Translations under genes and position numbers: made by a program
Shown here: piece by piece, positions 9,910-39,641 of the stretch
Numbering within the stretch: position 1 is the first letter of the stretch
Layout: the number at the start of each line of letters is the position of its first letter
The notes under the pieces: generated by a model
Seen by the model: only the letters and a program-made list of their open reading frames with translations
What the model was told of the DNA's origin: nothing
Database searches by the model: none
Source of the DNA: Microthyrium microscopicum
Lineage: Eukaryota
Assembly (NCBI GenBank): GCA_010405405.1
Contig: MU004231.1
Location: 3,597,486 to 3,637,126, forward strand
DNA: 39,641 bases
Reading direction: 5' to 3'

Positions 9910-10170
9910 ATAGTAGCTATAGAGGTAAATTTTATAATAGTTAAAGTAGAGGTAGGTTTAATAAAAAAGGAAGTAGTAATTATAAAGGTAAATTTTATAG
10001 TAATTAAAGTAAAGGTAAGTTTAATAAAGAAGGAGATAATAGTTATAAAGGTAAATTTTATAGTAATTAAAGTAAAGATAAGTTTAATAAAGAAGGAAGT
10101 AGTAGCTATAAAGGTAAATTTTATAGTAGTTAATATAAAAGTAAGTTTAATAAAGAAGGAGGTAATAATT
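9910..10170 (-). repeat. 63-bp (21-codon) tandem repeat x4, Ser/Thr-rich on minus strand
   Basis: ggtaaatttta at 9924, 9987, 10050, 10113. De-RIP reading ~TTSSSVEPTSTSTTAESTSAA. Related degenerate copies at ~10350-10500. Confidence 0.85.
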
Positions 10171-11920: not shown

Positions 11921-11998
11921 NTATATAAATTACTATTATTATTAATAAGTCTTTTACTTCTTATTTAATATGCTGTTTCTCTTTTATAAGATCTTATT

Positions 11999-14660: not shown

Positions 14661-15149
14661 TAGTTATCTTAAAGACTATAGTATATAGTTTATAATAGAA
14701 TTAAATAAAAGATATAATAGTATTATAATAAGTAGTAGTAAAGCTATTAATTAACTAAGTAAGTTATTATAAATAAAGAAGGTTATTAGAAACTAAGATA
14801 ATAAAAATATATAATAAAGGTAAATAGTTACTATTTTAATTATTACTATAAGTAGTAGATAATTATTAAGTAATATTTAAGTCTAGTAACTAGATAAGCT
14901 CTTTATAAAAGCTTAAGATAAAGTATAGAGAAGATATATATATTAGAAGTAAGGTAAAGAAGTAAAATAAGTTTAGATTACTATAAGTACTAAAGAAAAA
15001 AGATTTAAAATTAATAGCTTATTATTTTATTTAAAGAATTATAAATTAAAAACTATTAAAAAGAATAGATAATTTTACTTCTTATATATATATTATTCTA
15101 TATAAATATATATTCCTAAAGTTTCTAAGTTAATTTATTTTATTATATT

Positions 15150-18100
15150 CTATATTATACTAACTATTATATTTAAGTCTATAATTAATACTAATAAAAT
15201 TAAATTACTTAGGAAATAATATTATAATAATAATAATAATACTTAGTAGTTTATAAAATATATAACTCTTAGGTAATAAAATATTTATTAGACCTTTATT
15301 TTACTATATATCTTTATTATTATTACTACTATCTTCTTTATTATTATTACTAGTCTTTTCTTTACTATTTTTACTAGTCTTTTATTTACCTTCTTTACTA
15401 CTATCTAGTTTATCTTCTTTATTTTCTACTTCTTTTCTATTATTACGTTTCGTTCTCTTTACCTTATTAGTAAGCTTCTTAAAATAAACTTTAATCTAAG
15501 CTTTATAAAGCTTTTTATTCTTTCTCTTTAGAGCCTTATATCTTACTATAGTTTTAGCCTTAGCTACCTTAATTCCTTATTTACTAAAGGTAACTAAGTT
15601 ATATATTCTAGTATAATTATTATAATTAAGGTATAGATTTAACTAATAGTAATTAAGATACTTTAAGTCTCTATAAAGAACTATATATATAATAGTTAAT
15701 AGTTTATTTAGTTTATATACTTTTAACTTTATAGCTAACTTAAATAATATAAGACTTAATAGCTTATTAAATATAAGTTTTATAGCTTTTTCTAAGATTA
15801 GTATATACTTTTAAATTAAAGCTATAAAAAATCTAGTATATCTATACTATAATTTAAAATTTCTTATTATTTAATCTATATTATATACTATATAAATAAT
15901 AAGTAGTTATATAGGAAGTTAACTTAAAAGACTAAAATTATTATTAAGCTCTTTCTTAAATATAGAATAGGCCTAAGCCTATATAAAGTCGCGTTACTAA
16001 TAGTTCTTAGTTAAGACTTTACTATACTATTAACTATTATCTTTACTTTTCTACTATTCCTATTTATAGTAAGTTATAAAGAGTTATATATTATTTTTAT
16101 TATTATCTATTATATAGGTTATGCTACTATATAGTATTATAATAAAGTAACTTAGCTAAAGAGTATTAAAATATAATACTTTATTAGAGTATATAAAGTC
16201 TAATCTATTATTAATAAGATTTTTATCTAAGTATATTTCTTTATTTTATATATGTAATAGTATTAGCTTTAAAAAAGACTAGCGCTTTTTAAGGTCTTTT
16301 TTATAATAATTAATTAACTAGCTATATAAATAACTCTTAAGGTTATTAAGCTTAGCCTATTTATTAACGTTCTTAGTAAAAAGTATACTAGATTTATAAA
16401 TGCCTTTATTATATAGCTTATCTATATAATATAATTAGAGTTATAAACTATATTTAGGTATACTTAATAGAATAATTATAGGATAAGTTTCTTTAAATAT
16501 AATCTTCTTCTTAGTAATATTATAAACTTAATAGTTATAGTTATTATTATTATTCTAAATTATATTCTTAATATAATTAGTAAGATAGTAGATTATTTAA
16601 ACGTACTAACTAGATTAAAAGTTAGTTTATTTTATTACTAGTATAGTATACTCTTAATATAACTTTTCTATAATACTAGAACTAGTTCTATTTATAGTGC
16701 TAAATATATAAATAGATAGTATAAGATAAATTAGGTTATAGAACTTAGGGAAATTAAGTCCTTTAAACCTAGTTTAAGAAGTCTTACGCTTATATATTAC
16801 TATTTTAGTATATTCTATAATTTATAAATAGACTTATATATATTTAAGTATATTCTTATTATATAACTTATAGCTAGAAAGTATAATAATATCTATTAAA
16901 GCTTTAATAAATTTTATTATAATTAGGTTCTTTAGAATTAAGAGTAGAGCTAAGGTAGCTATAAGTTACTTTAAAAGTGCTTATAATTCTAAGCTAGTCT
17001 TCTATTAAATATTATAGTAGCTTTAGACTATTCTTAGAAAGCTTAGATAAATAGGATACTATAGAAACCTATAGTTAATTATAAACTTTACTTTTGCGCT
17101 AAATATAGACTTCTTCTTTTTTCTTTCTTACTTAGTCTTTAGTATATTACTATTCTTTCTCTTAGTCTTTAGCATTTTATAGGTATAGGTCTTTTATATA
17201 GCTTTATTATTCTTTATTTTAGCTACTAGTACTATAGATATTATTAGTACTCTCTTTTTTAAAATAATTTAGGTTATCTAGTTTATTACTTACTTAACTA
17301 GTTTATTTAAAAAGAATATATATAGTAAATTAAAAATAATTACTATATAAATATTTAATAAAGAATAATTCTAAGTAAAATTATAAATTTTATAGATATA
17401 GTCTTTATTTTTAGTATTATTAATAGTAATAAGCTACTTAATATACTCTCTTTTTTAATTAGTATAATAAAGTACTTTCTACTTTAATATATTCTTTTAT
17501 AAAGTTATATAAGTCTAATAGGCCTATTTGCTAGTAAGGTCTTACTAATATAGTTATAGTACTAAGTAAATAAAATAGTAATATTTAGACTAAATACTTA
17601 TAATTATAATAAGCTTTTTATAATCTATATTTATATAAATAAGAATTAAAAGACACTTTTAAAACTAGTTATTAATAGTTACTATAACGTAACTACTTTT
17701 AAGGACTATTCTAAGTTCTATATTTTATTAGTAAATAGCTCTATAATACTTAAATACGTAGTATTAAATTTTTAAATATAATATTTATAGCGTTATAAAA
17801 TATCTTAAGTTTATTATTAATATCTATACCTTTTAGCCTAGGAAGTACTATAATAAAGAGAAATCCTAGTCTTTTTATAGCTTTTCTAATACTTCCTAAT
17901 AGATTAAAAATAGTTATATAGTAAGCCTATATATAGTTATTACTACGTTATTTAGATATTATAGTCTTATCTAACTCTTAGTAAATAAAAATAAGCATAA
18001 TACCTAAATTAACCTTATTTTATAATTCTTACTATCTTTTTACTAATTAAGTATTAGTATAGATATACTTACTATCTTTATCTTTTTATATTATAGACTT

Positions 18101-19277
18101 AAAGTAGAGGTTTTTAATAAAAGGCCTATAGAAGATAAAGAATTTAATAACCTCTAAAATACTTTAAAAGTATATCTTAACTTTGCTACCTAGAAGATTT
18201 TTAATACCTTTTATCTTATTATATAGTAGCTTTTTAAGTATTACTTTCTATTAGCTAGGTATAAAGCCTTTAAGGTTATTAATGTTTTCTATTAGCAATT
18301 TATAATTCTTTATTTTTTAACTAAGTAAGTTACGTATTTTACTTTTAAAAGCTATTTCTTAGAATAACTTATTTATCTTATTCTTTAATATATTACTAGA
18401 AACTACTTAATTAGTAAACTTTAGTTCTTTTTTTAGTTAACTCTATAGCTTTACTCTTTTATAAAGCTTTTCTCTTCCTAAATAATAATATTAGTATTCT
18501 ATCTTAATAGTATCTTAGAGTAGTAGCTTATACTTATTAATTTAGTTATAGCTTTTATTAGTTCTATAGGCTAGTATAAATATACTTATTAAATGTTCTA
18601 GATTTTATTATAAGTATATAATAACTTTATTAATTATATATTATATACTACTCTTAGACTTTTAAGACTTATTAGCCTTATCTATCTTATTTTATAAATT
18701 ATATTTATACTATATTAGAGTAGTAACTCTTTTTATAGCTTTAAGGGTAGCTAAAGATAAAAATATAGTAAAAGGCGTAATTATTTTATCTTCTATTATA
18801 AGCATTTTAGACGTAGTATAGTTATAACTAAAATAAGTAGTAAATCTTATACTAATAGAAGAACTATTTATAGAGAGTTCTTTTACTAGAGTTTTTATTA
18901 CTAGTATTAATTTTTATACTTAATTAAAAGGCTTTTAGAAGTAATTATAAGGGTTTATAGTAAAGAGGAACTATATACTATTTAGAAGACTTAATATATC
19001 TATATTTAAAAAGATTAGTCTATAAGAATAGTAATATAACTTATTTAGGTTAAATATATACTAAGAGACTAAAACGTATAAGTTAAATATATCTATATTT
19101 AATTACCTCTTTTTATTATTATACGTAATACTAGAAAGGTTACGTTAGTATATTAATTTCTATACCTATTTCGTTTTTATTAATTTTTAAAGATATAGGT
19201 ATATCTTTAGTATATAAGTAGTAAATCTAGTATTAAATTTATACTAGTAATAACTAACGTTTAATTTTACTTAGTAT
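15150..19277 (-). pseudogene. Plavaka-family DDE transposase (PF18759-like), RIP-inactivated
   Basis: Ordered de-RIP motifs: MYFRSILEVIKFFIFHRPF; KDEDGKRIYTD; MLIPIYxGSDKT (D at 17971-17969); AWAYYMTIxNL; CLPILIYTNADYEEL (D at 17625-17623); CPICLVP; NIHAAIIFDLLH; NFPKFHNLTHL..SIRMFGTADGTSSGITEKLH (E at 16668-16666); KRTN. A 40-nt GT..CTAAT..TAG intron (17718-17757) restores the frame. C-terminal tail is charged and Q/R-rich. Confidence 0.88.
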
Positions 19278-19354
19278 TTTAAGGCTTAAGTAGTAGAGTT
19301 AACTCTTAAGAATATTACCTAATAATATTTTATTATATATATAATATATCTTTA

Positions 19355-19400
19355 CTTATTAAATATTTCTAGACGTACTAGATATTTCTAGATATTCTAA
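19355..19400. promoter_or_regulatory. Cluster of TCTAGA-like motifs upstream of the transposase start
   Basis: tttctagacgtactagatatttctagatattctaaat, ~80-120 bp upstream of inferred start 19277; similar clusters precede other ORFs. Confidence 0.35.
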
Positions 19401-21889
19401 ATAGCTAGTATTAAGACTAAGTAGAGGTACTAGCTAATCTTATATAACTAATAAGTTATAATATTATATTAGAAATACGTTACGTAACTTTATATTATTA
19501 ATTACTAGCTTAGTAAGTTAACTTTTCTAGTAATAGTACTATTTTATTTATTTTTCTAGTCTAACCTCCTTATATATCCTTTTTTATTAAATTTTTCTAC
19601 TTATATAACTTCTTTATTCTAAACCCTTTTTCTATTTAATACTAACTATTATATTATCTAAGTTAGTTAATTAATTAGCTAAATAAACCTTACTTTAAAC
19701 TTAAACCTTCTCGCTATTCTTTTCTTTATTATTATTCCTTATTACTAATCTTTACTAACTTTACTTTCTTTATTAGCTTTATTAGCTTTAAATTTTTTAT
19801 TCTTAGGTTTAAAACTATAAAGTAAGGTTAGTCTTATAAAATCTCTAATTACCTTTAATTCTTTAAGTATAATAGTTTTAATCTCTTTGCGTATATTTAG
19901 CTCTTTTTTATAATAAGAAACTACTTTATTAAAGTTAGGAATATTAAGTTTCTTTAGATTCTAATAGAAGTAATTATTAGTAAATAGTATATACTATATA
20001 TAGCTATTATTAATAAAATGCTTTAATAATTTATTAAGTATAGATTATTTAAACTCCTTCTATTTCTTAGCACTAGGGGCTATTATAGTACTATAAAGCT
20101 TTAAGTTATTAAAGAATAAAGATAAGCGGCCCTAAGATGCTATAGTATTTATTTATAGGTTTTCTATAAGGAAACTAGTGTAATCTTTTTAAACGAAATT
20201 AATAAAATTTTAATTACGCTTAATATTAGAGCTATTATTATAGGTAGTTATTAGAACCTAGCTAAATTATAAAGATATATCTTAATAGTCTTATTAGGTA
20301 TATATATAATTATTCTAAATATATATAGTAACCTATTTAAGTAGCTAACCTTTAGTTTTAGTATAAAGGCTAGTTTATATAAGGTAAAGAGTAATAATTA
20401 TAGTATTAACGCCTTTTAATTATATTTATAGTAGAAGTTTAATCTATATAAAGGCTATAATATAAGCGTTATAAGTATTAGAACTTAAACTAGTAATATC
20501 CTTTTTAACTTTATTATCTCTAATATTTATAAATATTATAAATAGCGTGTCTTTTCTACGTTCTAAGGATAAAAAGAGCTAGTTTATAATATATTATAGT
20601 TAGTTAAATTTAGGATTATTATTATTAGTATATTTAAGAATTTTATAGCCTATATTATTAAGGAGATTATAGTATAATAAATTAAATCTAAATACTTATT
20701 TTAGTATAGTTTAGCTAAAGCTATTTACTATAGCGTTATATATTAATAGTATTTAAGAACTATTATAAAATATAGCTTTTTTATATTTAAGATTATAGAT
20801 AGGTCTAGGCTAGAATAAATCTCTAGTTTATATAATTATTTAAGGTCTATATAAAGATATAATAGCTATTATCTATAGTTTATATAATACTGCTACTTTA
20901 TTATAAATCTATAAGTTAATATTTATAAAATTTACTTAGAAAAGCTCTTATAAAGCGTTATAGTTTATAAAACTAAGAAGAGTAATTATTAATTATAAAT
21001 AATATTACTTTATATCTAGTAGTAGTTTACTATAATTAGCGCTCTCTAACTTTAAAAGCTTCTTCTTACTATAATACTTTTTATTAAGAATTTAGAAGTT
21101 AAAAGTATAATTAAGTAACTTTTTAGTAGCTATATTTATATTATATTCTTACTTTCTTATTACTAAGTTAATTACGTTAATTATTCTACTAGCTTAACTT
21201 ATAAATTCCTTAAATAAGTATTTAAGACGTTTAATATAATAGTTATAGATATTTTTAAAGTCTTAATATTTAGTATTTACGCAAAGTTGTTATAAGTAGT
21301 AAGTACTATGCTATTTAGTAAGTAATACTATTTTAGTATTTAGAATATTAGTATTATAGTTATCTATATTATTTATATTTTACTATTACGTACTAGGACC
21401 TTAATTTTAGTAGACTTAGGTTTATACCTCTTTTAATTTCTTTAAGATAATAGATTTCTTTATCTTAATTAAGTATTCTTAGATAGTAAAAAATTACAAA
21501 AGGTTTATAGGATTAACTTCTATATAGACATTTATATACTTAGTAATAAGGTTATCTAATTATATATTTATAGTATATATAGCTAAAATCTTTATCTTAA
21601 AATTAGGATAGAATATTATAAAAGTAATTAATATTACTATTATAGCTTTTATAGTTTTAGTTTTATTATATTCTAGCTTAGTATAGTAGATATTAAGTCT
21701 ACCCTTATTACCTTTTAAGAGAATAATATTAATAAACTCTTTTTAATCCTTATAAAGAGCCTTTATAATACTAATCTGTTCTACCTTTTTTATAAAATTT
21801 TAAATTTCTTTTAAAGTAATTCTAAAGTTAGTCTTTAGTAATTATGCGGAAGTAGCTATGCCTAGTCTTATAAAAGTGCTTAGTGACTA

Positions 21890-21928
21890 GTACTAATTAT
21901 TATTAATATTAGTATTATTAATATTAGT

Positions 21929-21959
<31 letters not shown>

Positions 21960-22059
21960 GTATTACTATTATTAGTATTATTAGTATTTTTTATAGACGT
22001 AATCTCGTTATCTAACTATTTATTAGAATTAGAAATATCTTTAGGTATGTCTTTATAGA

Positions 22060-22094
<35 letters not shown>

Positions 22095-22095
22095 G
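21890..22095. repeat. (TTA)n/(TAG)-type trinucleotide low-complexity tract (poly-Asn/Asp codons on minus strand)
   Basis: Long tta runs at ~21895-21985 and 22060-22093, within the large ORF. Confidence 0.8.
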
Positions 22096-22109
22096 CGTCG
22101 TTAGCTATA

Positions 22110-22205
22110 TTTAATTACTAACCTTATTCGTTATTAGCCGCTTTTAATTACTAACTCTATTCGTTATTAGCTACTTTTAATTACTAACCTTATTTACTAT
22201 TAGCT
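22110..22205 (-). repeat. 33-bp (11-codon) tandem repeat x3
   Basis: ttaattacta at 22111, 22144, 22177. Confidence 0.85.
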
Positions 22206-22259
22206 TTAGTAACCTTTAGCTTAGTCTATTAATCTTAAGCTTAAGACTTTATAGAGGAG

Positions 22260-22565
22260 AAGGTACTGTCGTTAGTAGAATAAAGGAGCGTTACTATAGT
22301 AGTATCTAAGGATTCTATATTAACATTATCTTAGACGAAGGGGAAGAAAGAATAAAAAATACTATTATTATTAAGATAAAGAGGCGCTACTATAGTAGTA
22401 TCTAGGGATTCTATATTAACGTTATCTTAGATAAAGGAGTAAAGAGGCTAAGAGGTATTATTATTAGTAGAATAAAGAGGCACTACTATAGTAGTATCTA
22501 GGGATTTTATATTAATATTATCTTAGACGGAAGAGAAGGAAGAATAAGAGGTACTATTATTATTA
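22260..22565 (-). repeat. 96-bp (32-codon) tandem repeat x3
   Basis: tactatagtagtatc at 22292, 22388, 22484. De-RIP reading ~NDSTSHSSFSSVQDNVDVESLDTTTAAPLHST. Confidence 0.88.
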
Positions 22566-25184
22566 GCTTTAAATTCCTATTTAAACTAAGATTTAGTTAT
22601 ATAGTTAGATAAATCTAGATTAAGTAGCTTATTAATTAGCTTTTATAAAGTAGAACTACTACTTATTTCCTTTAAAGTTTCTTTAGTCTAACTAGTTAAA
22701 GGTTTTAATATATTATTTTTAATATTACTAGAGGATAAGCTACCTAATAAAGTATTCTTTTATATCTTATTAACCTTTATAGTTAACTCTTTTAACGCGT
22801 TAGTATTTATTAATACTTCTTTAGTATATTTTAATATAATACTAAACTCTATCTTTCTAAGGAGTAAAAGTAAAGTATAAATAGTAAAAATCTTCTTTAA
22901 TAAAGGCTAACGTTCTAAAGAGTCTAAATATAAGCTAAGTACTATAGTAAAGTAGTAATTTAGGTTATATTTTTTTTATCTTAACTATACCTAGTTAAGA
23001 TTATTTATTTAGTATATAATAAGCTTATCTAAATTATATATATATATCTTAACCTTTAGCCTTTTTAGTTTAAGGAAGGCCTTATATAGGTTCTTAATTA
23101 ATTAGTTATAGTTTAGAGGAATAATAACTTCTTTAGGGATTTAAAATAAAGAGAATTAAGTATTATTAGTATATCTATTATTAAGTATAATAGAAGGATA
23201 ATATATAATTATAAGTACGTTATAGGTAGCTTAAATATTATAGTTCTAGTTAATAACTTTAGTAGTAAATTAAGAACCTTTAAGTCTAGCTCCTAGCTTA
23301 AGTTAGATTATATAGACGTTATTTTCTTAAAAATAAGGATATTCGTATTTATTTACTATAATATAGAAATTAAGGCTTATTAAGAATTTATAGTCTTTAC
23401 TTCTTAGTATTCTAGTAGTATATAATATAGTATTATAGGAAGCCTTATTCTACTTATATGCCTAATAAAGCTATTTTGCTAAATCTATACTCTAGGCTAT
23501 AAATAGATATAGGACTAAAGAATAAACTATATATAATAAACTTATAATTTTATTATTTTTTATTTTTATAAGATTATTATAATTATCTAGGAGGGTAATA
23601 TAACTCTTCTATAAGCTAAAGACGCTATTTATAAATAGATAATTAATATTAATAAAAATAATATCTAGATTAGTTTATATATCTTAAGAAATTAGTTAAG
23701 GAAGATTCTTTTTTATAAATATAGCTAGGTTAGTATTAACCTTAAAGAACTAGAAGACTATAGGGTACTAATTCTAAATAGTATATTAAAAATAATAAAG
23801 AAGTAAGTTAAATTTAGTATCTTTATTACTAACTATTAAATTACTAGTTATAGTAGAGTAGACTTAAAAAGGATTATTAAATAGATTAGGGTATATCTTA
23901 ATAGTAAGTATAATTATATAGCCTATAGCTAGTATGCTTCTATAGTATTTAACGTCTTAATTAATCTTATAAGCTAACTAGATAAGTTATTTCTTTAGGA
24001 TAACTATAGGAAACTTAGTAACTATCTAGTCTATCTTTTTCTTCTTTATAATTAGATTATTTAGTAAGAAGTAGATAGTTTTAATTATTAAAGTTATAAT
24101 ATTTTTCTATATATTATTTTTATTCTTATTAACTTTAAAAGTATTTCTCTTATCTTTAAGATATAGGTAGATAGTTAAGATTAATATAAACTAAGTAACT
24201 TATTTATTATTCTTTATTATAAAGAATTACGCTTTAATATTAAAAACTATAGCTTATTAATACTTCTTTTTTAATCTATATATATATTTAGGCTTACTAG
24301 TAGTACTATTTTAATTAACTTTATTATTAATACTATTACCTAAGTATTAATTTACTTTATTAACTAGATTATCTTTACTAAGAGCTACCTTTAGACCTTT
24401 TTTTAATATATCTTCTAGATAAGGTTTACCTAAATATACTTATAAGCTATAAATTTACTAGATTAAGGGCTTACTATTAGATAGATTTACTATAAGATTA
24501 TAGATAGTATATTAAGAATTCTTAAAATCTATTTAAGGTATTAGTATAAGGGTATATTTAGAGGTTTCTAGACTATTCTAAATTTTTACTTTATTTTTAT
24601 TTTTAGTCTTAGAATTTTATTTACTTAAGTTTAGAAATATAGGTAAAGAATTCTTTTTAGCTAGGTAGGTAAAGATAGCTATAGAATCTAGTCTATATAA
24701 GTAATTAGCTAAGAATAAGAAAATAAATTTCTTTAAACTTATATTTTAATAGCCTTAGAATTATTTAGCTTACTATTCTTATAAGGAGTATAAGTTTTAT
24801 ACTAATTAAAAAGAAGTTTTAAGATTATAATAACTAAATAGCTAGAGATCTTAATAAGAATTTTATCTTTACCTATATCTTAGCTATAGATTTAGCTATT
24901 ATAATTATATACTAATCGCTAAGTATATAAAGTATTATAAGTAGCTATACTTATAATAGATAAAGTAAGAGCTAAGGAAGAGATAAAAGATATAAAGGAT
25001 TTAGGTAGTATTTTCTTTAAGGAAGAAGAAGTATTAAGAAGAGAAGATAAATAATAGTAATAAAAGTAGTAACTTACTTATTATATTAAAATCTAAAGGC
25101 GTAATTACTAAAAGTTAGCTATTTAACCTAAACTTTAGATTATTAAGTTATACTATCTATAAAAGGATAAACTTAAGGAATTAT

Positions 25185-25838
25185 TTAAAAGAACTTATTT
25201 AATTTTTATAATTATAAAGGGTAGTAAGAAAGAGAAATAGTAATAAAAGAGAGGTTATAGAAATAAAGTAAAGAATTGCTCTCTTTACTAAAAACGTAAC
25301 TAGAAGTTTATTTATTAATAAAGTTATTATAAAGCTACGCTATTCTATATATAATAACTAAGTATAAGATAAATTTAAAAGAACTTATTTAATCTAGTAA
25401 TTATAGAATAGTAGTAAAAGAATAGTAATAAAAAAGATTTAATAATAAGAAAATAAAAATATTTTCTCTTTTAGTATAGAATCTTTTAGTTAAATAGGTA
25501 GAAACCTTACTAGAGTTTATATATAATAACTATATAGCTCTTAAGGTTAAGAGAGACTACTTCTTCTTTCTTAAATATTAAGTATAAGTATAGATATTAA
25601 TTATAGTTTCTTATTTTATTATAATTACTACTAAACCTTATATTATAACTACTAAGTTAGAAACTTAACTAATCTTATATAGGCTAAGACTTCCTTTTAA
25701 GTTTAAGCTTATATTAGCTAAGTTCTACTTTACTACTTTAAAATATTCTTTCTTTAAGCCTTTAATACTTCTTCTTTTACTATTATATCTCTACTTTACT
25801 ACTTCTTTATAATTACTAGATTAAATAAGTTCTTTTAA
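25185..25838. repeat. ~45-bp motif in two direct copies and one inverted copy
   Basis: ttaaaagaacttatttaat(c/t)t... at 25185 and 25375; reverse complement ...taattactagattaaataagttcttttaa at ~25794-25838. Confidence 0.8.
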
Positions 25839-27380
25839 TCTATTTATTTTTTAGCTATTAGTATTTTATATACTTAGTAATTACTTTAGTTTAGCTCTAT
25901 AGGCATTAAATCCTTTTCTTTAAGTTAGAGATATAAATTAGTATTCTTAATTCTATAGCTTAAGGTTTTTATATACCTAATTATTCTTTTAATAAAGCCT
26001 TTAAGTATAATTCCCTTTTATAAATTAATTATAATATTAGATAAGTTATTCTCTTAGTACCTTTATTTTAGAAGGTTTTAGTATTTTATATATAGACCTC
26101 TAAAATTAGCTCTTCTTTAGTATAAACCTTACTTTTAGTTAGTAATAGCCTATAGGTATAATATTTTATAATAACTAATTTTAAAAGTATAGTATAATAC
26201 TACTTAGAGGTACTAAATAAATATTTTAGCTAACTTAACTTACTAGCTTTAATATATTCTTACTAAATACTCTTTACTTCTAATTTACTACTAATTTATT
26301 ATATTTAATAAATTTTTCTCTTTTAGTATTATTAACTTTATTAACGAATCTATACTAAACCTTATAAACAACATAGTAAAGATAATTTATAGAGTAAACT
26401 CTAAATATAATTAGGAAGATTATAAGTAGGCTAAGTAAATAGTTAGAGCTAAGAATAATATAATTAAGGTAAACCTTTATATGAAATTAGGCTATTATAC
26501 TAACAAAATAGTCTTTAATATTATCTCTATTATAAAAAAGGATATTCTTAATTAATTTAGCGCGATTAGATAGTCTACTAATATTATTAGTTATAATCTT
26601 AAATATATTAAAGTTATTAAACATAATTTATAATTCTTCTAAGCTATTATCTTATTAGTATTTAATATCCTCTCTTATAAAGCTCTAGACTAGATTATAC
26701 TTTTATATACATAATATCTTATTAGTAATAAATAAGCTTATTAAGAACGACATAAGTAGTAAAAGTAGCTCTATAATTTATATAATTATTTTACTTTAAA
26801 GCTAGATATAATCCTAATTATTTTATAAATAATCTAAGCGTTTATAATATTTAATAATAAAGACACGTATAGTAATTCTACTTTTAGAGGATATTAGCTA
26901 TACTATTCCTAGCTTCCTAACTAGCCTTATAGAACTATAAATAAACTATAAGGAAATTATACTTACTATCTAAACCTTATTAATAATATATTACTAAATA
27001 TGCTATAACTATAGAGTAATAGTCTAAGTTTAGCTACGTCTTATTCTTTATTTAATTAATATAGATATTAAGGCTATATAATACTACTACTAAGCTTTTA
27101 GAATAGTAATATCTATTATTAACTATAGTAGTAGCCTAGCTATTATAAAATATAACTTTTATTATCTATATAGTATAACTTAACTTAGTACAACTTTATA
27201 ATATTTAGATTTAGAGATATAATTTTGCCTTAGCTAGGTCTTAATAGCTATAGCCTATATTAAACTCTATAGTAATTTAATATTAATAAGAATATAGCGC
27301 TAAGCTATACTAATAAAGGTAATAATAACTTCTTTTAAGGTATCTTAAAAGGTTATTATAGTAATACGCTATAGTATAGC

Positions 27381-27550
27381 TAATCTTATATATATATCTC
27401 TAATAATAGCTATATACTATCTAGATTTACTTAGCTATCTTTTTTAGCTCTACTAAACTCTTCTTAATCTTATATATATATTTCTAGTAATAACTATATA
27501 CTACCTAGATTTATTTAGCTACCTTCTTTAATTTTACTAAACTCTTTTAT
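27381..27550 (+). repeat. 84-bp (28-codon) duplication in SNF2 N-terminal region
   Basis: taatcttatatatata at 27381 and 27465. Confidence 0.8.
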
Positions 27551-28699
27551 ATATATATAATTAAAAAAGAAAAAGCCTATTTTAAAAAAATACTATAAAA
27601 CCTAATAGTTCTTATTTACTTTTTAAGAAACTAACGCTTAGAATAGTAAAGACCTTAATATAATTATATTAGTATTTACTAAGGACTCCTTATAAAAATA
27701 GGTTATACTAGACCTAAAAGATATATATAAATTAAGCCTCTTTAACTTATTTAAGATAAATATAAATATTTATAAATATATAGTTAAGATTAGTATAGAG
27801 TACTTTAAAAATATAATAAGCTTAAAGTTAGACCTATTTAAAAGTCTAAATATAATTTATAGTATAAGTTAAGTATAAGATAATTAAACTATTTTAATAA
27901 GTTTAAATATATACAATTTTGTTAAAGTTACTTATAATAATCTCTATAAGCTAAGAAAGATTACTTTTAAAGTTACTTAGGTTAAATCTCTTTTAAAGAA
28001 AACTTATACTAGTAAATAAAAATATAAGGCCTTAGTTACTTTTACTCTAAGCTCTTCTCTTTTACTTTAAAATAAATATAATAAGAAATCTTATACTTAA
28101 CCTTATATAAATCCCTAGCTAACTACTTAACCTATCTCTACTACTAAATTATTAATGTATAAACGTAATATATATAAAGATCTTATTTTTAATTAATTTA
28201 ATAAAGATAGTAAGGTTACTAAAGATAATAAAGATAGTAAGGTTACTAAAGATAATAAAGATAGCTTAGATAAGAATTTTAAAAATAGCTTAGTTAAGAA
28301 TTCTAAAATAGAGTTAAATAGTAATCTAAATAATTCTAAAGAGAAAGACTTAGAATTTCTACTAGTATCGCCTAGTAGAATAAAGTAAAAGTATAATAAT
28401 AATAAAAATAATATAAAAGGAGTTAGTAGTAGCTATAATCTTTTAGTATTTATAAATAAAAAGAAATTTAAGAATAAATCTAGTTCTTATAATTATAAAA
28501 AATAATAGACTTTAGTATAAATAAGCCTATTTAGTAAGAAAAATAAAAGTAAATCTAAATATAAAGAGGTAAAGGTAAAATTAACTTTAATCTTAGAAGT
28601 AATTAATAAGAATAGTAGCTAAGAATATTATACTTCTCTAAGCTTACTAGTCTAAATATTATAGCCTTAGAATGTTATTACTAATATAGAGATAAGGAA

Positions 28700-29290
28700 C
28701 GTATAATAAGATTAAGTATTACTTCTAAATAGCGTTAAACTTATAAATACTATTATTATATCTTCTTAAGGACTTAAAGAGCGTATTATTAAGTTAGAAA
28801 TAGAGAGTATATAATAAAATTAAGCACTACTTCTAGATAGCATTAGATTTATAGATACTACTACTATATCTTCTTAAGGACTTAAAAAGCTTATTATTAA
28901 GCTAAAGATAAAGAGCGTATAATAAGATTAAGTACTACTTTTAGATAGTACTAGACCTATAGATACTACTATTATATCTTCTTAAAAACTTAAAGAGCGC
29001 GTTATTAAGCTAGAGATAGAAAGCATATAATAAGATTAAGTACTACTTTTAGATAGTACTAGACCTATAAATACTATTACTATATTTTCTTAAGAACTTA
29101 AAGAGTATATTATTAAGCTAGAGATAAGAAGTATATAATAAGATTAAGTACTACTTCTAGATAGTACTAGATCTATAGATACTACTACTATATTTTCTTA
29201 AGAACTTAAAGAGCGTATTATTAAGCTAGAGATAGAGAATATATAATAAGATTAAGTATTGCCTCTAAATAGTAATAGACTTATATAGTC
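28700..29290 (+). repeat. 108-bp (36-codon) tandem repeat, ~5.5 copies, in frame within the SNF2 ORF
   Basis: taagattaag-like motif at 28707, 28815, 28923, 29031, 29139, 29247. De-RIP reading ~QQDQAPLPDSTGPADTTTASSQGPEERVVEPETESV. Confidence 0.92.
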
Positions 29291-32200
29291 TTAAAGCCTT
29301 AAGCCTTTTACTAATAATATATAGATAGGAGATAGTAAAGTATAAGCGCTAATTTCTATAAATATTAATTATCTATTTAAAATATATTATTTATAGAGAC
29401 CTAATTCTACTACTCTAGATTATATTATATTACTCTTTACCTTATAAAAATTAAGTTATCTAATAATAGCTAAATTTCCTTTTAATTACTTAAGAAAATA
29501 CTATAGCTTTCTAAGTATACTAGCTTCTTTAACTATATTATTTTCTTAAAATAAGCTATTTTCTTTTAGCTATACTAAACCTTTAAGTTTCTCTAAGTAC
29601 GTTATTAATTTTATTAACGTTATAGATATTATTAATCTTACTATTAATAACTTAGAATTATTACTATTTATAGTAAATATTTTTATAAATATTAAAAACT
29701 TAACTAAGGAAGATATTACTATACTAGATAACTCTATAGCTATTAAAGTAATTAATTTAACTATAGAAAAGATTACTACGCTATCTAAACTTTAATTACT
29801 AGACTTACTATTTTTTTTATAGAATAAAGTAAATATATTATATAGTATAGAAGTAAAATACTTTTAAGAGTTATAACCTTATAAAAATAAGTAATAATAT
29901 AACTATAATAATAAGGATAGTAATATAAGAATTAATATATAGTAAGCTTATAAGAAATAGATTAAACTTTATTTATCTAATATATATAAACTAATACTTA
30001 ATATTATTAGCTTTTATATATTAAAGACTTTTAAAAATAAATATATCTAAGAATAAACTAGTTTCTTTATTAACTACTTTAACTATACTAAATATAGATC
30101 TATTATACTTAAGTCTTTTATAATAAGTAAAGCTTTATATACTAAAACTTTATAAGCTAAACTATTTTATAATATATATATAGAATATAGAGAGTCTAAA
30201 ATAGTTAAAGATAAGGATTTAAAAGCTTTCTTTATTATAAGCTTCTATATAGAACTATTATAGAGTAAAACTTATAAGTACTTAATACTTAAAGACTAGA
30301 GAGAGATATATATATTCTTTAACTATAAAGATAAGAATAATATATTAGATTTTATTATTTCTAGATTTAAAGTTAATATTTAAATTTATTAAGCTATTAG
30401 AGTAATAATTATATATAAGTATATTATCTTTATATAAAGCCTCTATATTATAAACGTTCTAAGCTTAGAGAAGACTATTTAGATATTAATTACTATTTAA
30501 ATAAATAGTTAATAGACTAAAAGTATAGTAATATATATAAAAAAGTAACACCTTATAGAAGAAAAGAAACCTAAGCTTTTTAAGAAATATTTATTAAACG
30601 TTTAGGTCCTTAGTTATTAAGGCCCTAAGAATAAAAAAAAAGGTCCTTATACGTAGTTAAGAAGTCTTAACTAATCTATAATATACTATTACTCTAAGAA
30701 ATTATTAGCATAGTTAAAATCTACTATAACTTATATTAACTCTAAAAACTATTAGTATAATACTCTTACTATTAGTATAAACTATATATAAATAATTATA
30801 TCTATAATCTTAGTTTAATTAGATAAATAGAAAAAGGTAATTAATACCTTAAAATATAAAAGTAAGCCTAACTAGGTATTTATCCTCTATGTTAACTATT
30901 TAAGTATAAAACCTAAATTTATATTCCTAAATAAAGTTTTCTATATACGTAGACTTTTTATTAATTTTAAAACTAATTTTAGAATACTTAAGTAGACTAG
31001 TATTATTATATTAATAATATTAGGTTTATATATATTCTAAGTCTTATAACTAATTATAAAACTCTTATGAGCATAGTTAAAAGAATAGAAAACTAGATAT
31101 TATAAAACTCTAGAATTTAAGAACTATTTTTATATTAATATAGAATTAGTAGTAAATAGAGGTAAATACTTACGTAATTAAAAATACTTTATAATTAGAG
31201 TCTTAGTCTTAGATAAGTTTTATAAATATTAAATATTAAATAACTTAACTTATTCTAATATTAATAAAGAAACCTATATACCTAGTTATATACTATTAGA
31301 GTACTATTATAGTATATAGTCTAGAGCTACTATATTAAGTTAATCTAGGATATATTATAATACTATAGTAAGCTAACTAAACCTAATTACTTACTTAGTA
31401 AATATATAATATATTTACTTCTCTAATACTAATAAAAACATTAGAGAGTTTCTTAAATAGGAATTAAAAAAAGATTAGGTAATCTTTACTAATAATTATA
31501 TATTATTTACTCCTCTATTACTTAATACTATTTCTAGTTAAATTACTATACTTATTATGAAAGATATAAGATTACATAAGTATTCTAATAAAAGAAAAGA
31601 GAAATAGCTTATAAGAGAATAAGCCTAAGTAAGCACTATTTTAGCTAGTATATATATCTTATTTAAACTCTACTATATAATAAATATAGAGCTTTTTAGT
31701 TAAAAGTATATTATACTACCTTTAAATAAAATAAGGCTTATTATTATTAATATAATAAACCTAGAAGTAATATAGCTTATAGATAAGCTTAATAAATATA
31801 TAGTAGCGTAAATAAATAAACTAAGAATAACTACTATTAATAACTTTAGTACTTAGTGTAAAAGTAAACTATATTAAGCTAAATAGATATAAGCTAGGCT
31901 AGCTAACTATATAGTTTACTAAACCTCTATTAAGATTATATATTATAGATTTATTATTAAGGTGCCCTATCTATTAATATTAAAATAGGTAAAGAAAATT
32001 AAAGAATAGGCTAAAGATAATCTCTATTATATATTAGTAGGAATTAATAGTAGCCTATTTCTAAAGCCTAACTCTAAGAAACTAGCTAAGCCTAAGAATA
32101 ATCTCTTTATTAAAGAAGCTTCTTAGTTTTTAAAGATAAGTGCTTAAATATAATACGTAGTAGAGGTTATTAAAAAGATCTATATTAATCTAGAAACGTA

Positions 32201-34208
32201 CTTTTTTAATAGAGAATAAAAAGAATAAGGCTTATAATAAGGTAAAGTCTTAATTATTATAAAGTATTTTACTTCTACTAGTATAATTATAGTAGCGTTT
32301 TAATATATAATTAAGAAATTTAATCTCTAAGTACTTTATTTTACTAAAACTAGTATATTAAGTAAAAAGTTATTTTTAATTAAAGTAGGCTATTTAAGAA
32401 CTAGCTCGTCCTTATGTAATAAAGCTAATATTTATTACTTCTTTTAAAATATTCTAAAGTCTATTATAAGTAGTTAAACGCTATTAAGAGTAGGTAAATA
32501 CTTCTTTAATAAGAATATCTAGGTTCTAGTTAGAACGTATAGTAGCTATAGTATTAGAAGTAATTAGTAGTAAGTAAAGTATCTAATTATAATATCTATT
32601 CTAATATTACTAAGCAATTAGACTTAGAGTATTAGAAAAGTTCTTTAAGTAAGTAATATAGTAAAGTATATCTTAATTAACGTATTATACTTAGATAATA
32701 ATTTAATTAATATACTATTATAGAATATTAATAAGCTTTAGTTAAATACTATAGATTTTATAAAGGCTTATTTTAAAGGTTAAGTAGTATAACTAATAAG
32801 ACTTAAAGATTTATAAATATATCTTAAATTAGGACTAACCTAGCCTAAGTTAACTAAACTAGTATCTTAATCTAAGGAAGCCTTAGCTTCTCTATTTATA
32901 AAAGAGATATAGAAATACTTAAAGAATATTAAAAATAATATATACTAGAATATTAAAGAGAGTTTAGTTACGATTAAGACGAAGCTTAGAAATAATAAAT
33001 TTAATAAATAACTTTATATATAATTAGTTTAGTTTATAGTAAGGGTTAAAGTACTACTATTAAATTATTAATAATATAGGATATTAGAAAATATACTTAA
33101 AGTTAATATTATTATTATTAATATACAAAATATATCTTTATAATAAATCTAAATATCTTAACTAGACTAATAGATATATCTAGTAGCTAAAAGAATCTAG
33201 AGAGAGATAGAAGAATAATAAAGATAAATAATAATGCTTTATAGTCTATAGAGTATTTATTTAACTAAATATCTTTTAGCGTATATTTATAAAATATAAC
33301 TTAGCTATATCTATTTATAAACGCTATTCTATTTATATCTCTTTTCTTTAGTAATATTAACTTATAAAGTAAATAATGTAGTACTATTAGTTTTTATAGC
33401 TCCTACTAGGATTTTAGGTAAAGAGCTTAGAAAGAATTATAGAGCTATATTATTTATATTATTAAGTAATTAATAATCTAAGCTAACATTCTAATAGGGT
33501 ATTCTATTAATCTTCCTTTTATTTATTTATAATATTAGAACTCTTTTAAAAATAAAAATTAGTAGTTTAATTCTTTAACTTTAGCTTTTCTATAAGTAAA
33601 TCTATTATTTTTACTAATAAAAGGTTAGTAAATTATACTATATTATAATATTAGCGTTATTAATATACTTAGATAAATTAAAGAAGATTTAGCTATATAA
33701 TTACCCTCTTTGCTAGGATTAATTCTATTATCTACTTTATTTATATTTAAAGGCTAAGAAAAAGGTAATAAAGAGGAGAGAGATAGAAAAAGATAGGGAT
33801 AAGGAACTAAAAGTTAAGAAGGCTTAAACTTAAGGTATTAAGTTCTATTTAATTAGATAGGAAAGGCTGTATCCTTTTGTAACTTTAATAATAAACTACT
33901 AGTCTAAGTAACTTTACTATCTAAATCTAGGACTTACTTATAATAACTATTACTAGTTTTAATTCTTAGCTTACTTATTTAACTCTATTTTTATGCTTAA
34001 TATCTTTATCTATCTTAGTATTACGTCTATTACTAATAATTATAAATATTATATTATTTCTTATATTAAGATAATTTATAAACTTAGTTAAGCTTTTATA
34101 AACCTAATAGGCTTATATAAATATATAAACCTTAAGAAACCTAATATAATATCTAGATTTAAATAGCGTTTAATTTTAATATATTAACTATAATTATACT
34201 TCTTTATA

Positions 34209-34720
34209 ATAGGCTTTATTTAGATATATACTTTAATATATATCTATTCTAGTTATAGTAACCTATTTCTTTTATATCTCTTATTAAGATTTACTTAGGT
34301 AAGTACTACTATGCTTTAATTAGACCTACTTAGAGTACTCTAGGCTAATTTTTAAGGAGTCTAAGAAAAAATAAAGTAATACTTAAGATATAAATAAAAT
34401 TAAGAGTAAGAACTATAATTCTTTAGAATAATTAAGTATAGACTAATTATTCTATAAATATAGAGTTATAGCTACGTAATTATCTACTTTATTAAAAGTA
34501 GATTTATTATATTTTATATCTTTACTTAAAGACTAAGAATGTAAAGAAATTAGAGAACGTAAAGAAGGTAAAGAAGTACGTAAAGAAGGCTATAAAGAAG
34601 GCTATAAAGAAGGCTTAGTTAAAGGAGAAGGCTAAGGTAGAAAAAGTTACTAACTTATTAGAGAAGACTATACTTAAAAATAAGGTTAAGGTAATAGCTA
34701 AAGAGGCTAAGAAGGCCTAA
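34209..34720 (+). pseudogene. Small 3-exon gene (~130 aa): putative CxxC..CxxC knuckle plus Lys/Ala-rich basic tail
   Basis: Introns 34299-34356 (gtaagt..gctaat..aag) and 34406-34463 (gtaaga..actaat..tag) splice in frame to ...KNVKKSENVKKVEKYAKKAAKKAAKKA... The Cys residues are inferred from tat<tgt. Confidence 0.6.
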
Positions 34721-35339
34721 AGTTTAAGATATAAAATACTCTTTATTAAGTAGAAACTAAAAGTTATTATATAGAACCTATAGTTACTATATTAAAGTTA
34801 ATTAATAATATTAGCTCTAAAAGCTTAAATAATTTTCTTTATCTATACTTTCTTACTTTAAAGGTTCTAGTCTCTATATTAGGGAGCTCTTTAATATAAT
34901 TTTAGACGTTCTAAATATACTTATTTATAAAAGATATATAGTAAATAATAGGATAAGTTATAAAAGAGATAGTAATTAGAAGTAGTAATTAAGAAAAATA
35001 AAATCTTAAGCTATAAGTATATTTAATAAGAGAGATTACTCTACTACTCTTAAAATCTAAAAATCTAATTAATTATTAAAAAAGTTACGTAAAGTTTTAG
35101 ACTTAAAATTACTATTAAGCTTTAAGGCTTTTTATCCTTTTTTTTGCTACTTATTTTTTCTTATTTATAATAACTATACCTTTATATTAAACGTATATTA
35201 GTTAGTATAAAGATTAAGATATTATCCTTAAGGAGAAAAGAGTAGAGTCTATTAAAATAAGATAAGTCTTAACTATAAAACTATTTACTATATTAAGATT
35301 ATTATTACTACTTTCTTTATTTATACCTTAGAGTAGTAA

Positions 35340-35470
35340 ATAAGAAGAAAGAGAAAAAAGAAAAGATTATAAGTAAAAAGAATAAAGAATAAAAAGAGAA
35401 GAGAGAAGAGAAAAAAAAATAAGTAGAATAGAAAGTAAAAGAAAAAGAGATATAGTAAATAGATATAAAA
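35340..35470. repeat. Purine-rich (A/G) low-complexity tract
   Basis: aagaagaaagagaaaaaagaaaag... over ~130 bp. Confidence 0.7.
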
Positions 35471-35579
35471 GATAACTAGACTATTATAATTAGCTATAAA
35501 ACTAAGCTAATATAATAATTTAGGGGTAATAAAAGTCTAAATTATTACTATTAATTATATTTAGGCTAGAAATTAAAAT

Positions 35580-36800
35580 AGAAAAGGTTAGTACTTTAAG
35601 TAGAAAACTAAATAGTAATTATTACTATTTAGTTCTATTAGTATACTTTATAAATTAATTAGCGTAACTTAGTCTACGTTATAAAATATTATTATTTATT
35701 AAAAATAGAAGAGCTTTTAATTCCTACTAAGGAGATATAATATTAACTAGAGTTATTAAATCTAAAATATTTAAGTATATTATATTTTCTCTTTATATTA
35801 TTCCTATTTATCTCTAGGTAAGTATACCTCTTATTTACCTTAGTAGAAATAACTTAAAAAATATTAAAGATTATATATACTTAGGTACTTATCTTTAGTA
35901 TTTTATAAATAAAGTACTTAATAGAATTATATTTATAGGAGGCTATAGGGTTTATAATAGATTATATAATATAGGATTTAGAACGTAATGTAGCGTCTTA
36001 GGTAATATATTAAGGCTTTTAACTATTATAGTAGAGAAAAGACATAATCTTATTATAAGTCTACTTTATATAAAATAGTTATTAGACTTCTATTTTATTT
36101 ATACTACCTCTTATTATTTAATTAATACTAATTATAGATAAACTAGCTATATTAAAGCCTATAATAATACTTATTTAAGATAAACTTATTATATAGTAGT
36201 AACTATATATAAATAGCTATAGATAGTTTTTAAGCTTTATAGCGTACTCTTAATTTACTTACCTTGCTTTTAAATAAGAATAAAATAATAATAATAATTA
36301 CTAACTCCTTTATTAATTCGTTAGAGTTACTAAACCTAAAGCTATTATTATAAATTTACTCTTAGAAGTAGAAGATTATAACTAGAGGCTTTATTACTAT
36401 AATATATCTTTTAGTATTAATATTCCTTAACTTAATAAAGATAAGGATAATAATTCTATAAGTAAAATTATATAGCTATTAACTATTTTAAATATAGAGA
36501 GCTAATAATAAATAAGCTAGAACGTCTAAACTACTACCTATATAACTCTCTTTATCTTAGTAAGTATAGTCTATTCTATAAATATATAATTCCTTAAATT
36601 ATAAAACTAGTAAGTAAGTTATTATTAGAAACCTTATATTAATAATAAAAACTTATAAAATATTAATATATAGGAGGCTAGTTACTAGAAAAGGTTAGGA
36701 ATAATCTGCTATTTAGACTTTTATTATAATAGGGTATAGAATACCTTAACTATATCTAAAATAAATATTACTCCTTAAAATTTATATACTAGACTTAGTT
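35580..36800 (-). pseudogene. ORF (~400 codons) with S/Q-rich N-terminus and tentative BAH-like C-terminal domain
   Basis: Continuous minus frame. De-RIP: ...PFVHGCYYAMS...SVISIDRMMRGGTNEMEVRQLFHTEWT...DATLRSESHIVQSVVDPAASC... Confidence 0.5.
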
Positions 36801-38436: not shown

Positions 38437-39641
38437 ATTATAGGTTCCCCTTCCTTTTTTAACTTAGGAAATATACTAATAATTAGAACGAAGCATAATA
38501 TTAATTATTATAAGTAAGATACTAAGGTATACTAAAATGCCTAATTTCTAGGTTAAAACCTAGCTTTATAACCTTATAGTTAACAAAGTAAACGTTCTTT
38601 AAGTAAAATAAATTAGTATTAAATCTTAATAGTTTAGTAGAATAAGTTAGCCTTAGATATTAAATCCTTATATATATTAGTCTAAACCTTAGCTTTAGTT
38701 TAAGTACTTTTTTATCTTTTAAAGTATATTACTTATCTTACTACTCTTATATAGTAAACTAGTTACTTTCTTAATACGTCTATATATATTTATTAAGTTA
38801 ATAATATTTAGAGTCTATTAGCTACTTAGTATAGATAATAAATAGTACTATAGATTAATTAGGTATAAGTTTATTAAATACTTAAGAGTTAAGCTATATT
38901 TTAGTTCCTAATATAGTAGTATCTATTCTAGCTTTAAAAAATACCTTAAGCTTAGTATTAAAAAGTAGCTCTATATTAGGCTTAATAAGAGCTTTTAGTA
39001 AAATTTAAGAGCTAGCCTCTATCTTAAGTTAAAGAAACAATTATAACTTAGTTTTAATAAAATGCTCTAGAGCTTATTTAATAAGGTTCTTAAGCTTTAT
39101 AATAGAAGTAGCCTATAACTCTAGGCCTAAAGCTTATTTAATAAGAGCCTTAAGCTTTATAATAAAAGAAGCCTATAACTCTAAGTCTAGAGCTTATTTA
39201 ATAAGAATCTTAAGCTTTATAAGGAAAGAAGCCTATAACTCTAGGTCTAGAGCTTATTTAATAAGGGCCTTAAGCTTTATAATAGATAAAGCTTATAACT
39301 CTAGTTCTAGAGGTTATTTAATAGAGGTTATAAAATAAGGTATTTACTATAACTCTTAGTTTAGTAATTATTTAATAGAAGCCTTAAGCTTTATAATAGA
39401 AGGAGCTTATAACTCTAACTCTAAAGTAGTATTTAGTAAGTTAGAGTTAATAACTATTAGTAATTCTAATACTAAGAAAGTATCTTAATTAGACTTTTAG
39501 TATATATTAGCTAGGTCTAGTAGTCCTATTTAATAAAACTAGAAAGTATTACCTATTCTTTATATACTAGTAGGATTTAACTAAAAAATAGTATTTTATA
39601 GTACTATAAATATTAGGTTCTATTTAATAGTACTAATTAGC
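38437..39641 (-). pseudogene. 3' part of a RIP-degraded ORF with Pro/Glu-rich repeats and an unrecognised globular C-terminus
   Basis: Continuous minus frame ending ...DLFYLENVYFVDYEVMKLGFDPEIRHFGVP...RKRKGNPQ*; 5' end outside window. Confidence 0.55.
39060..39430 (-). repeat. 60-bp (20-codon) tandem repeat, ~5-6 copies
   Basis: agcttatttaataag repeats every 60 bp (39070-39330). De-RIP reading ~EPQASLPTEPEAPVEQAPDP. Confidence 0.9.

Follow-up and report, generated by a model that had tools for sequence, protein, structure and literature searches.

A stretch of 39,641 bases from Microthyrium microscopicum (assembly GCA_010405405.1, contig MU004231.1, positions 3,597,486 to 3,637,126; hereafter the window, whose first letter is position 1) carries on its plus strand a long, heavily mutated open reading frame (ORF), here called ORF-C. 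We give about even chances to the reading in which ORF-C, now dead, was a transposon-associated gene that encoded an ATPase of helicase type, with a remote likeness to SNF2 proteins. ORF-C would then be a copy of a long intronless gene inactivated by repeat-induced point mutation (RIP), as well as part of a multi-copy repeat of at least 20 kb that also holds a divergently oriented transposase gene of the Plavaka (EnSpm/CACTA-like) type. Its C-terminal ~880 codons would most likely have encoded a P-loop ATPase of helicase superfamily 2 (SF2), remotely related to SNF2, with SNF2-style Q-motif and motif I, motif Ia and a recognizable motif V–VI segment kept, motif III and the inter-lobe region undetectable, and spacing that is non-canonical. 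The N-terminal ~935 codons have little recognizable structure and carry in-frame tandem repeats (36 residues x5.4, and 9-residue units). An earlier note, made from the letters alone, had placed at 26847-33235 an element-borne SNF2 ATPase of ~2100 residues. The frame and its limits are as follows.

27564-33006, plus strand: ORF-C, an intronless ancient frame of 1815 codons with a guanine-cytosine (GC) content of 0.197 and a purine/pyrimidine (R/Y) maximal-scoring segment of 63.8 bits.
26847-27563, plus strand: leading part of the span drawn in the earlier note, 717 bases without coding signal, with an 84-bp x2 tandem repeat at 27381-27546.
28199-28308, plus strand: tandem repeats of 27 bp x2.4 (28199-28264) and 24 bp x2.2, in frame in N-terminal ORF-C, found by Tandem Repeats Finder.
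28702-29285, plus strand: tandem repeat of 108 bp (36 codons) x5.4, in frame in N-terminal ORF-C, with 86% matches.

The window as a whole is RIP-damaged. GC content is ~20% throughout its 39,641 bases, no ORF of at least 150 amino acids occurs in any frame, the RIP indices TpA/ApT and (CpA+TpG)/(ApC+GpT) are 1.65 and 0.054, respectively, and 2,936 of 3,584 C residues (82%) stand in a CpT context. Both hallmarks of a RIP-mutated repeat are present, namely CpA/TpG depletion and divergence between multiple copies by transitions only. The same extreme depletion, transitions-only copy divergence and lack of intact ORFs mark the RIP-degraded repeat relics in AT-rich blocks of Pezizomycotina genomes, from which the window shows no difference; on the RIP side it is ordinary. 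Because the changes made by RIP are all transitions, C>T or G>A, the ancestral R/Y pattern is kept exactly and R/Y tests see through the damage.

By these tests, ORF-C is an ancient coding frame. Codon position 1, as marked by purine periodicity, fell at coordinates divisible by three in every overlapping 1.2-kb segment between 27.6 and 33.0 kb (p 2e-6 to 2e-3), with purines at codon position 1 of the frame chosen in the earlier note at 0.59-0.66 vs 0.46-0.55 over the same range. The codon R/Y-class log-likelihood (eight classes, 27600-33035) was +77.7 bits in this frame and -59 to -275 in the other five, and the frequency of the stop/W/Q/R class, 0.079, equals the coding expectation. The frame was favoured in 14 of 15 segments of 120 codons (27567-32607) and another frame in none, so no frameshift or intron is visible. 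The R/Y signal amounts to 0.043 bits per codon, about the level of intact coding sequence; the damage is therefore essentially confined to transitions, and transversions are hardly present. Thus, the long intronless frame and its strand stood up to the R/Y tests, while its span shrank: all six frames were negative over 26847-27599 (-17.1 bits in the frame concerned), as were the 120-codon segments at 26847 and 27207, which leaves 1815 codons (~1800 residues) instead of ~2100, the first 717 bases not being coding-like.

The copy is now dead. Stops interrupt 141 of 1814 codons of ORF-C (93 TAA, 47 TAG, 1 TGA) and 183 of 2129 codons across 26847-33235, and only two of the 1814 codons are in-frame ATG. 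With a frame so riddled with stops, any statement about the protein rests on reading through RIP damage. Reassigned stop codons, as in a ciliate-like code, were considered and rejected, since hardly any CA/TG dinucleotides are left and, with them, hardly any Met, His, Gln, Cys and Trp codons. The N-terminal region had been described as disordered or repetitive. The repeats are there, as listed above (108 bp x5.4, 27 bp x2.4), but the region is only slightly more polar, disorder-promoting residues under the RIP model reaching 0.64 in the N-terminal part and 0.59 in the C-terminal part.

To assess copy number, sequencing contigs of four DNA runs (X1-X4) were aligned to positions 14500-34400 (19.9 kb) at a likeness of at least 80%. 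The runs gave 3605, 3645, 3338 and 464 aligned contigs, and all 30 bins were covered. Among those of X1, 824 showed at least 99% identity, 1010 fell at 95-99%, 1289 at 90-95% and 482 below 90%, and a variant letter at a single place was carried by up to 11-13 distinct contigs. The differences seen in X1 comprise 2,934 transition places (A>G 700, C>T 701, G>A 733, T>C 800) vs 32 transversion places. So many contigs, differing almost solely by transitions, indicate that the whole ~20-kb stretch is multi-copy and that RIP struck its copies independently. This multi-copy status excludes a single-copy housekeeping orthologue and supports the description of the gene as element-borne; the earlier view that it is no captured housekeeping gene is likewise borne out, with ~3,300-3,650 contigs per run in X1-X3 that differ almost only by transitions. 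A RIP-damaged orthologue of a single-copy host SNF2 gene, with RIP leaking in from adjacent repeats, would share the motif resemblance described below, its only support. Against it stand the multiple copies and their transitions-only differences, the uniform ~20% GC of a window without any ORF of at least 150 residues, and a match to none of 121 SNF2 reference proteins (see below); we consider this origin exceedingly improbable.

Two further observations concern the copies. In X4, A>G (786) and T>C (779) places relative to the window exceed C>T (453) and G>A (440) places, which suggests that the sample also contains copies of the family with fewer mutations. Some X1 and X4 contigs align from 30168 on, or up to 30515, and then enter CA/TG-containing sequence that is not RIP-like; such joints occur in single contigs of a repeat family, with sides no longer than 20-68 letters. 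At another place in the genome, a short fragment with the Q-motif/motif I region may border on unmutated DNA.

The neighbour of ORF-C on the minus strand suggests the type of element.

17770-24661, minus strand: ORF-B, a 2298-codon ancient frame, head-to-head with ORF-C (R/Y segment 58.5; log-likelihood +63.3 for 19800-24600).
17765-18214, minus strand: relic of a Plavaka transposase domain (PF18759) at the C terminus of ORF-B, matched over profile positions 33-195 (of 325).
24662-27563, no strand: spacer of 2.9 kb between the divergent frames ORF-B and ORF-C, multi-copy as well.

The PF18759 match scored 33.4 bits (E 3.6e-8), and a shorter piece 38 bits (E 1.5e-9), past the curated cut-off of 26.3. 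This relic, head-to-head with ORF-C and 2.9 kb away, adds to the support for an element-borne gene. From adjacency and the even contig cover we infer that ORF-C and the transposase moved as one element. No frame of 16800-17765, downstream, yielded the second half of PF18759, and a homologous-protein search with the Plavaka region returned 823 candidates, none at E ≤ 1. Neither self-BLAST nor, over 12-39 kb, BLAST in R/Y space detected a pair of long terminal repeats (LTRs) or terminal inverted repeats (TIRs) around ORF-B and ORF-C, only local tandem arrays and matches of chance length. An intact LTR retrotransposon around ORF-C was considered and is therefore unlikely. Within ORF-B, the Plavaka domain occupies only the last ~150 codons, and the ~2150 codons upstream gave no match of any kind.

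The identification of ORF-C as an SNF2 ATPase did not survive whole-domain searches. Pfam returned no family at E ≤ 10 for the whole read-through frame. When the frame was cut into four pieces of ~600 residues, neither SNF2_N (PF00176), Helicase_C (PF00271), ResIII nor DEAD appeared at E ≤ 10; the two pieces that carry all the motifs claimed gave no family at all, and the others only junk (DUF2251, E 0.027; Lpp-LpqN, E 1.7-1.9). With the read-through translation, phmmer found three irrelevant matches in PDB (E 0.2-0.3) and, in an exhaustive search of 1.84 billion protein representatives, none.

RIP-aware searches were then set beside controls. In the model used, each T is a possible former C and each A a possible former G, with context probabilities taken from the dinucleotide depletion of the window, and the output is a posterior over ancestral amino acids for each codon. 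An ATPase-core profile of 511 columns was built from 121 SNF2 references (RapA and 120 long proteins of prokaryotic, CHD1, Mi-2 and, in one case, Snf2/Brm type). Six genuine SNF2 genes served as positive controls; simulated RIP took them to a GC content of 0.16-0.21 and 71-209 stops, and the template was built without the gene under test. Simulation and posterior rest on one model, and control genes were given uniform codon usage. In hhalign these controls scored 165, 410, 422, 574, 406 and 492 and aligned as one collinear stretch over the whole core, with second-best background matches of 15-20. The RIP-aware target profile scored 26.1, 23.3, 21.6 and 15.5 against the family, and 32 control tile-frames of the window gave top values of 29.0, 24.1, 24.1, 23.9 and 22.1 (median ~18). 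De-RIP hidden Markov models (HMMs) of simulated SNF2 genes matched 94, 76 and 90 of the 121 references. Even naive translations of RIP-simulated SNF2 genes were all recovered by a leave-out family HMM (20/20, E 1e-19 to 1e-106), which found nothing in ORF-C or in the longer span of the earlier note even at E ≤ 1000. The window also holds a positive control of its own, since Pfam recognizes the Plavaka domain, 10 kb away and RIPped to the same degree. Given these failures and the strong recovery of the controls, a conventional SNF2 domain in ORF-C is excluded with good confidence.

At the level of single motifs, part of the signal persists. Four segments need to be distinguished, with codons numbered along the longer span from 26847.

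30369-30500, plus strand: match from the Q-motif through motif I, codons 1175-1218 against profile columns 12-55, 20.9 bits.
31212-31223, plus strand: the motif II "DEFH" of the earlier note, GAT AAG TTT TAT, codons 1456-1459, a permitted reading at chance level.
31938-32042, plus strand: motif Ia-like segment, codons 1698-1732 against profile columns 63-97, 22.8 bits.
32550-32654, plus strand: segment like the end of motif V to motif VI, codons 1902-1936 against profile columns 409-443, 21.1 bits, overlapping the V and VI of the earlier note.

Motif blocks were scored against shuffles and 166,306 positions of unrelated real protein (RIP-simulated non-core parts of the references), with 121 RIP-simulated SNF2 cores as the genuine yardstick. 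The motif I block reached 16.1 bits at the site claimed, more than at any other of the 79,170 positions of the six frames; by chance, 0.011 such scores are expected per ORF, and none of 300 shuffles equalled it. The P-loop codons AGC TTA GAG AAG ACT ATT TAG (30462-30482) permit GLGKT(I/V)Q and are preceded by (I/V)-A-D, so that the stretch permits the SNF2-typical ADxxGLGKT(I/V)Q; a Q-motif with a GLGKT(I/L/V)Q P-loop, the combination looked for as a sign of SNF2 membership, is present in this sense. The motif Ia block scored 15.2 bits at codons 1705-1730, a value reached at none of the 166,306 null positions and in 1% of shuffles, and its segment permits V-P-x6-W-x2-(E/K)-x3-W with internal spacing exactly as in the SNF2 family. 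Blocks I and Ia nevertheless lie at or below the 5th percentile of the genuine cores (22.2 and 14.8), motif I being below it. The motif V–VI segment permits Q-x-(I/V)-(G/R)-(K/R)-V-x-(R/Q)-x-(G/S).

The remaining blocks stay at chance level. Block II was best at the DEFH site with 7.6 bits (0.43 expected per ORF; reached by 33% of shuffles; genuine minimum 15.4); the F at its third position has no RIP route from A or G. The Walker B pattern DE(A/G/S)H..KN was not found in ORF-C. Motif III (TGTP.QN) scored at best 3.1 bits anywhere in ORF-C, with 4.3 such scores expected and a 5th percentile of 17.9 and minimum of 6.6 in genuine cores. Blocks V and VI reached 9.6 bits (0.18 expected per ORF; genuine minimum 13.2) and 6.8 bits (0.88 expected; genuine minimum 13.6), and the V and VI sites of the earlier note scored 2.3 and 6.1 bits as blocks. 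Up to eight ancestors are permitted per codon under RIP, and in so degenerate a reading short motifs such as DExH easily arise by chance. Of the motifs claimed to share one frame, I exceeds chance, and II, V and VI are weak where they had been placed; the assignment of motifs I and II ~250 codons apart is contradicted, as the strongest Ia match (codons 1701-1732) lies downstream of the supposed II.

These results bear on whether ORF-C could be a genuine SNF2-family ATPase, element-specific and fast-evolving, with large insertions and motifs II-IV diverged past profile recognition. Its motif I permits ADxxGLGKT(I/V)Q, its Ia has the exact family spacing, its VI site permits Q.IGRV.R.G, and the I, Ia and V–VI matches are both collinear and the highest-scoring. 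In addition, a closer subfamily may have been missed: most of the profile comes from SNF2 proteins of CHD, Mi-2, Snf2 and prokaryotic type, and the reference set has no Rad5/16, SHPRH, Rad54, Ino80, Swr1, Mot1, ATRX or SMARCAL1 types. Yet every SNF2 gene tested, including RapA and the lone, left-out Snf2/Brm type, was strongly recovered after equal simulated RIP, whereas ORF-C scored 26 in hhalign, gave nothing at E ≤ 1000 and matched 0/121 references, its blocks II, III, V and VI fell below the genuine minima (7.6, 3.1, 9.6 and 6.8 vs 15.4, 6.6, 13.2 and 13.6), and Pfam returned nothing relevant at E ≤ 10 though it recognized the equally RIPped Plavaka domain. We hold a true SNF2 ATPase to be rather unlikely.

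Set against the SNF2 family (PF00176 SNF2-rel_dom plus PF00271), then, ORF-C permits GLGKT(I/V)Q, VP..W..E...W and Q.IGRV.R.G, in collinear order and within a long protein. It differs in having no whole-domain match by any method, no motif III, and motifs II, V and VI below every genuine member tested, as well as in its spacing: ~480 codons separate I and Ia, and ~170 codons lie between Ia and V vs ~310 profile columns. Its similarity to the SNF2 profile does not exceed that of DEAD-box or RecQ helicases.

The reading as a remotely SNF2-like helicase draws mainly on the combined signal. In an ungapped-diagonal map of ORF-C against the profile, the three top high-scoring segment pairs (HSPs) were Ia (22.8 bits), V–VI (21.1) and Q/I (20.9); they are collinear, and the next best reached 15.3. 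Neither their sum of 64.8 nor a third-best HSP of at least 20 recurred in 150 codon shuffles, and the maximum sum among 91 chunks of unrelated RIP-simulated protein was 55.4. When 17 non-SNF2 SF2 helicases of E. coli were RIP-simulated and compared with the SNF2 profile, their sums ranged from 38 to 73 (DEAD-box 60-73, RecQ 62), and their best HSP in the motif I region was 14.7 vs 20.9 in ORF-C. A sum comparable to that of ordinary non-SNF2 helicases has the magnitude of a remote helicase relative and not of a family member; the apparent SNF2 flavour of ORF-C lies in which motifs match, not in how high they score. We infer from these matches that ORF-C probably encoded a real ATPase.

Several results weigh against this reading. 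The X1-X4 runs stem from one sample of one study; the assembly itself was probably made from it, so that the runs are not independent. The linkage between ORF-C and the transposase consists of adjacency and shared multi-copy cover, without TIRs or LTRs. A profile HMM from samples of the ORF-C posterior matched none of the 121 references at E<1e-3 (best E 0.023), and the hhalign score of 26.1 was surpassed by one of the 32 control tile-frames (29.0). Compared with the 17 E. coli helicases, the ORF-C profile gave no match (best -4.7 bits, shuffles reaching +0.1). Motif Ia stands 500 codons after motif I, where ~25 are expected. Among 40 control tiles of the window, one came close to the top-three sum of ORF-C (62.7 vs 64.8). 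With insertions tolerated, the chain score of 61.0 falls inside the range of its nulls (40 shuffles, 51.1 +/- 5.0, maximum 66.5; 40 tiles, 50.4 +/- 6.1, two of them at or above 61).

Such figures also fit an unrelated protein of an unknown family, in which the helicase-like motifs would be accidents of RIP-degenerate reading. Up to eight ancestors per codon, the chance-level blocks II, III, V and VI, chain and hhalign scores inside their nulls, the one tile at 62.7, the multiple testing inherent in six blocks and the failure to find a homologue of any kind all favour this explanation. It is countered by the three independent top HSPs, whose positions coincide, in the right order, with the three helicase segments of highest conservation and whose sum no shuffle (0/150) or chunk (0/91) matched; and by block I, which outscores every other one of the 79,170 positions and does so in the only frame that truly codes. 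On balance, we judge pure coincidence unlikely.

If ORF-C was indeed a helicase-type ATPase, its architecture was unusual. The canonical SNF2 motif order and spacing are not found in ORF-C, and profile columns 100-390, including the SNF2-specific inter-lobe helical region, have no significant match there. One layout runs Q(1175)-I(1201)-[~480 codons]-Ia(1701)-II?(1748)-IV?(1796)-V(1888-1915)-VI(1921), compact and without motif III or inter-lobe region. The other, that of the earlier note, runs I(1201)-II(1448)-...-V-VI and leaves the strongest Ia match out of order. Both are non-canonical, and we know of no SNF2 protein with motifs I and Ia 500 codons apart. An internal rearrangement of this dead copy is possible.

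The functional protein, if there was one, would most likely have served the transposon as an accessory DNA-dependent ATPase or translocase, the present copy being inactive; a role in countering silencing or aiding transposition, as once proposed, is a speculative prediction. DNA transposons that encode helicases include Helitron (Rep/Pif1) and AcademH, in which the helicase, SF1 Pif1-like or of another lineage, lies in or beside a different transposase. Compared by description only, they embody the same general idea of a transposon with its own large helicase-type ATPase. The KDZ/Plavaka elements were reportedly first described by Iyer et al. in 2014. As in fungal transposons of the Plavaka/EnSpm-CACTA-like type (CMCT clade), the present locus combines a PF18759 relic, here 2.9 kb from the divergent ORF-C, with a multi-copy stretch. 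One study treats Plavaka as an EnSpm-like lineage of the CMCT clade and reconstructs families from Agaricomycotina, some with a TET/JBP cargo gene; the termini of Plavaka are TGT..ACA or CATCA..TGATG with target-site duplications (TSDs) of 2-3 bp (PMC12730594). The text mentions neither "SNF2" nor "ATPase", and its single "helicase" refers to Helitron (PMC12730594). Unlike the Agaricomycotina elements with TET/JBP, the parts of the window scanned with Pfam yielded no TET/JBP domain; and in contrast to the described Plavaka, C and G have been altered by RIP here, so termini and TSDs are illegible.

If the helicase-like reading is true, a motor ATPase of its own would place the EnSpm/CACTA-like Plavaka beside Helitrons and the few other DNA transposons so equipped, and the range of Plavaka would grow to include a fungus in which RIP is very active. 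With a dead copy and a protein that matches no family, the finding is of limited biological value. The lesson is rather methodological: spotting motifs by mental de-RIP yields plausible SNF2 motifs that mostly fail calibrated controls, while R/Y codon classes and ancestral-codon posterior profiles, with simulated-RIP positive controls, separate real ancient frames and domains from chance. A bolder conjecture is that a giant Plavaka-type family (at least 20 kb) in a RIP-active fungus carried its own SNF2-like translocase of ~1800 residues with an unprecedented architecture (an insertion of ~480 codons between I and Ia, and a compact core without inter-lobe region). This would make it a new class of transposon-encoded DNA-dependent ATPase, possibly serving chromatin access or acting against silencing; we regard it as a long shot.

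Other features of the window are less prominent.

15111-17259, minus strand: ORF-A, a 717-codon ancient frame (R/Y segment 33.2) downstream of ORF-B in another phase.
3507-4153, 8807-9276 and 11219-11921: three runs of N.

Pfam assigned no family to ORF-A, which could belong to the transposase gene, as a further exon or as its continuation after a frameshift, or be cargo in its own right. In profile comparison, ORF-A, ORF-B and ORF-C were unrelated to each other (scores of at most 24.0), and ORF-A and ORF-B showed no SNF2 match. A weaker coding-like R/Y signal at 34342-36040 on the plus strand (30 bits, phase 1) is purine-rich and positive in all three plus phases, and probably reflects composition rather than a gene. 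Satellite-like arrays extend over 3000-8700 and 9900-10500, with a 360-bp tandem at 7901-8625 (92% identity), units of ~700 bp recurring over 4155-6721, repeats of ~125 bp at 9910-10172 and the three N runs interspersed. At the right end of the window, a tandem array of ~120-bp repeats occupies 39066-39440, with 75-81% identity.

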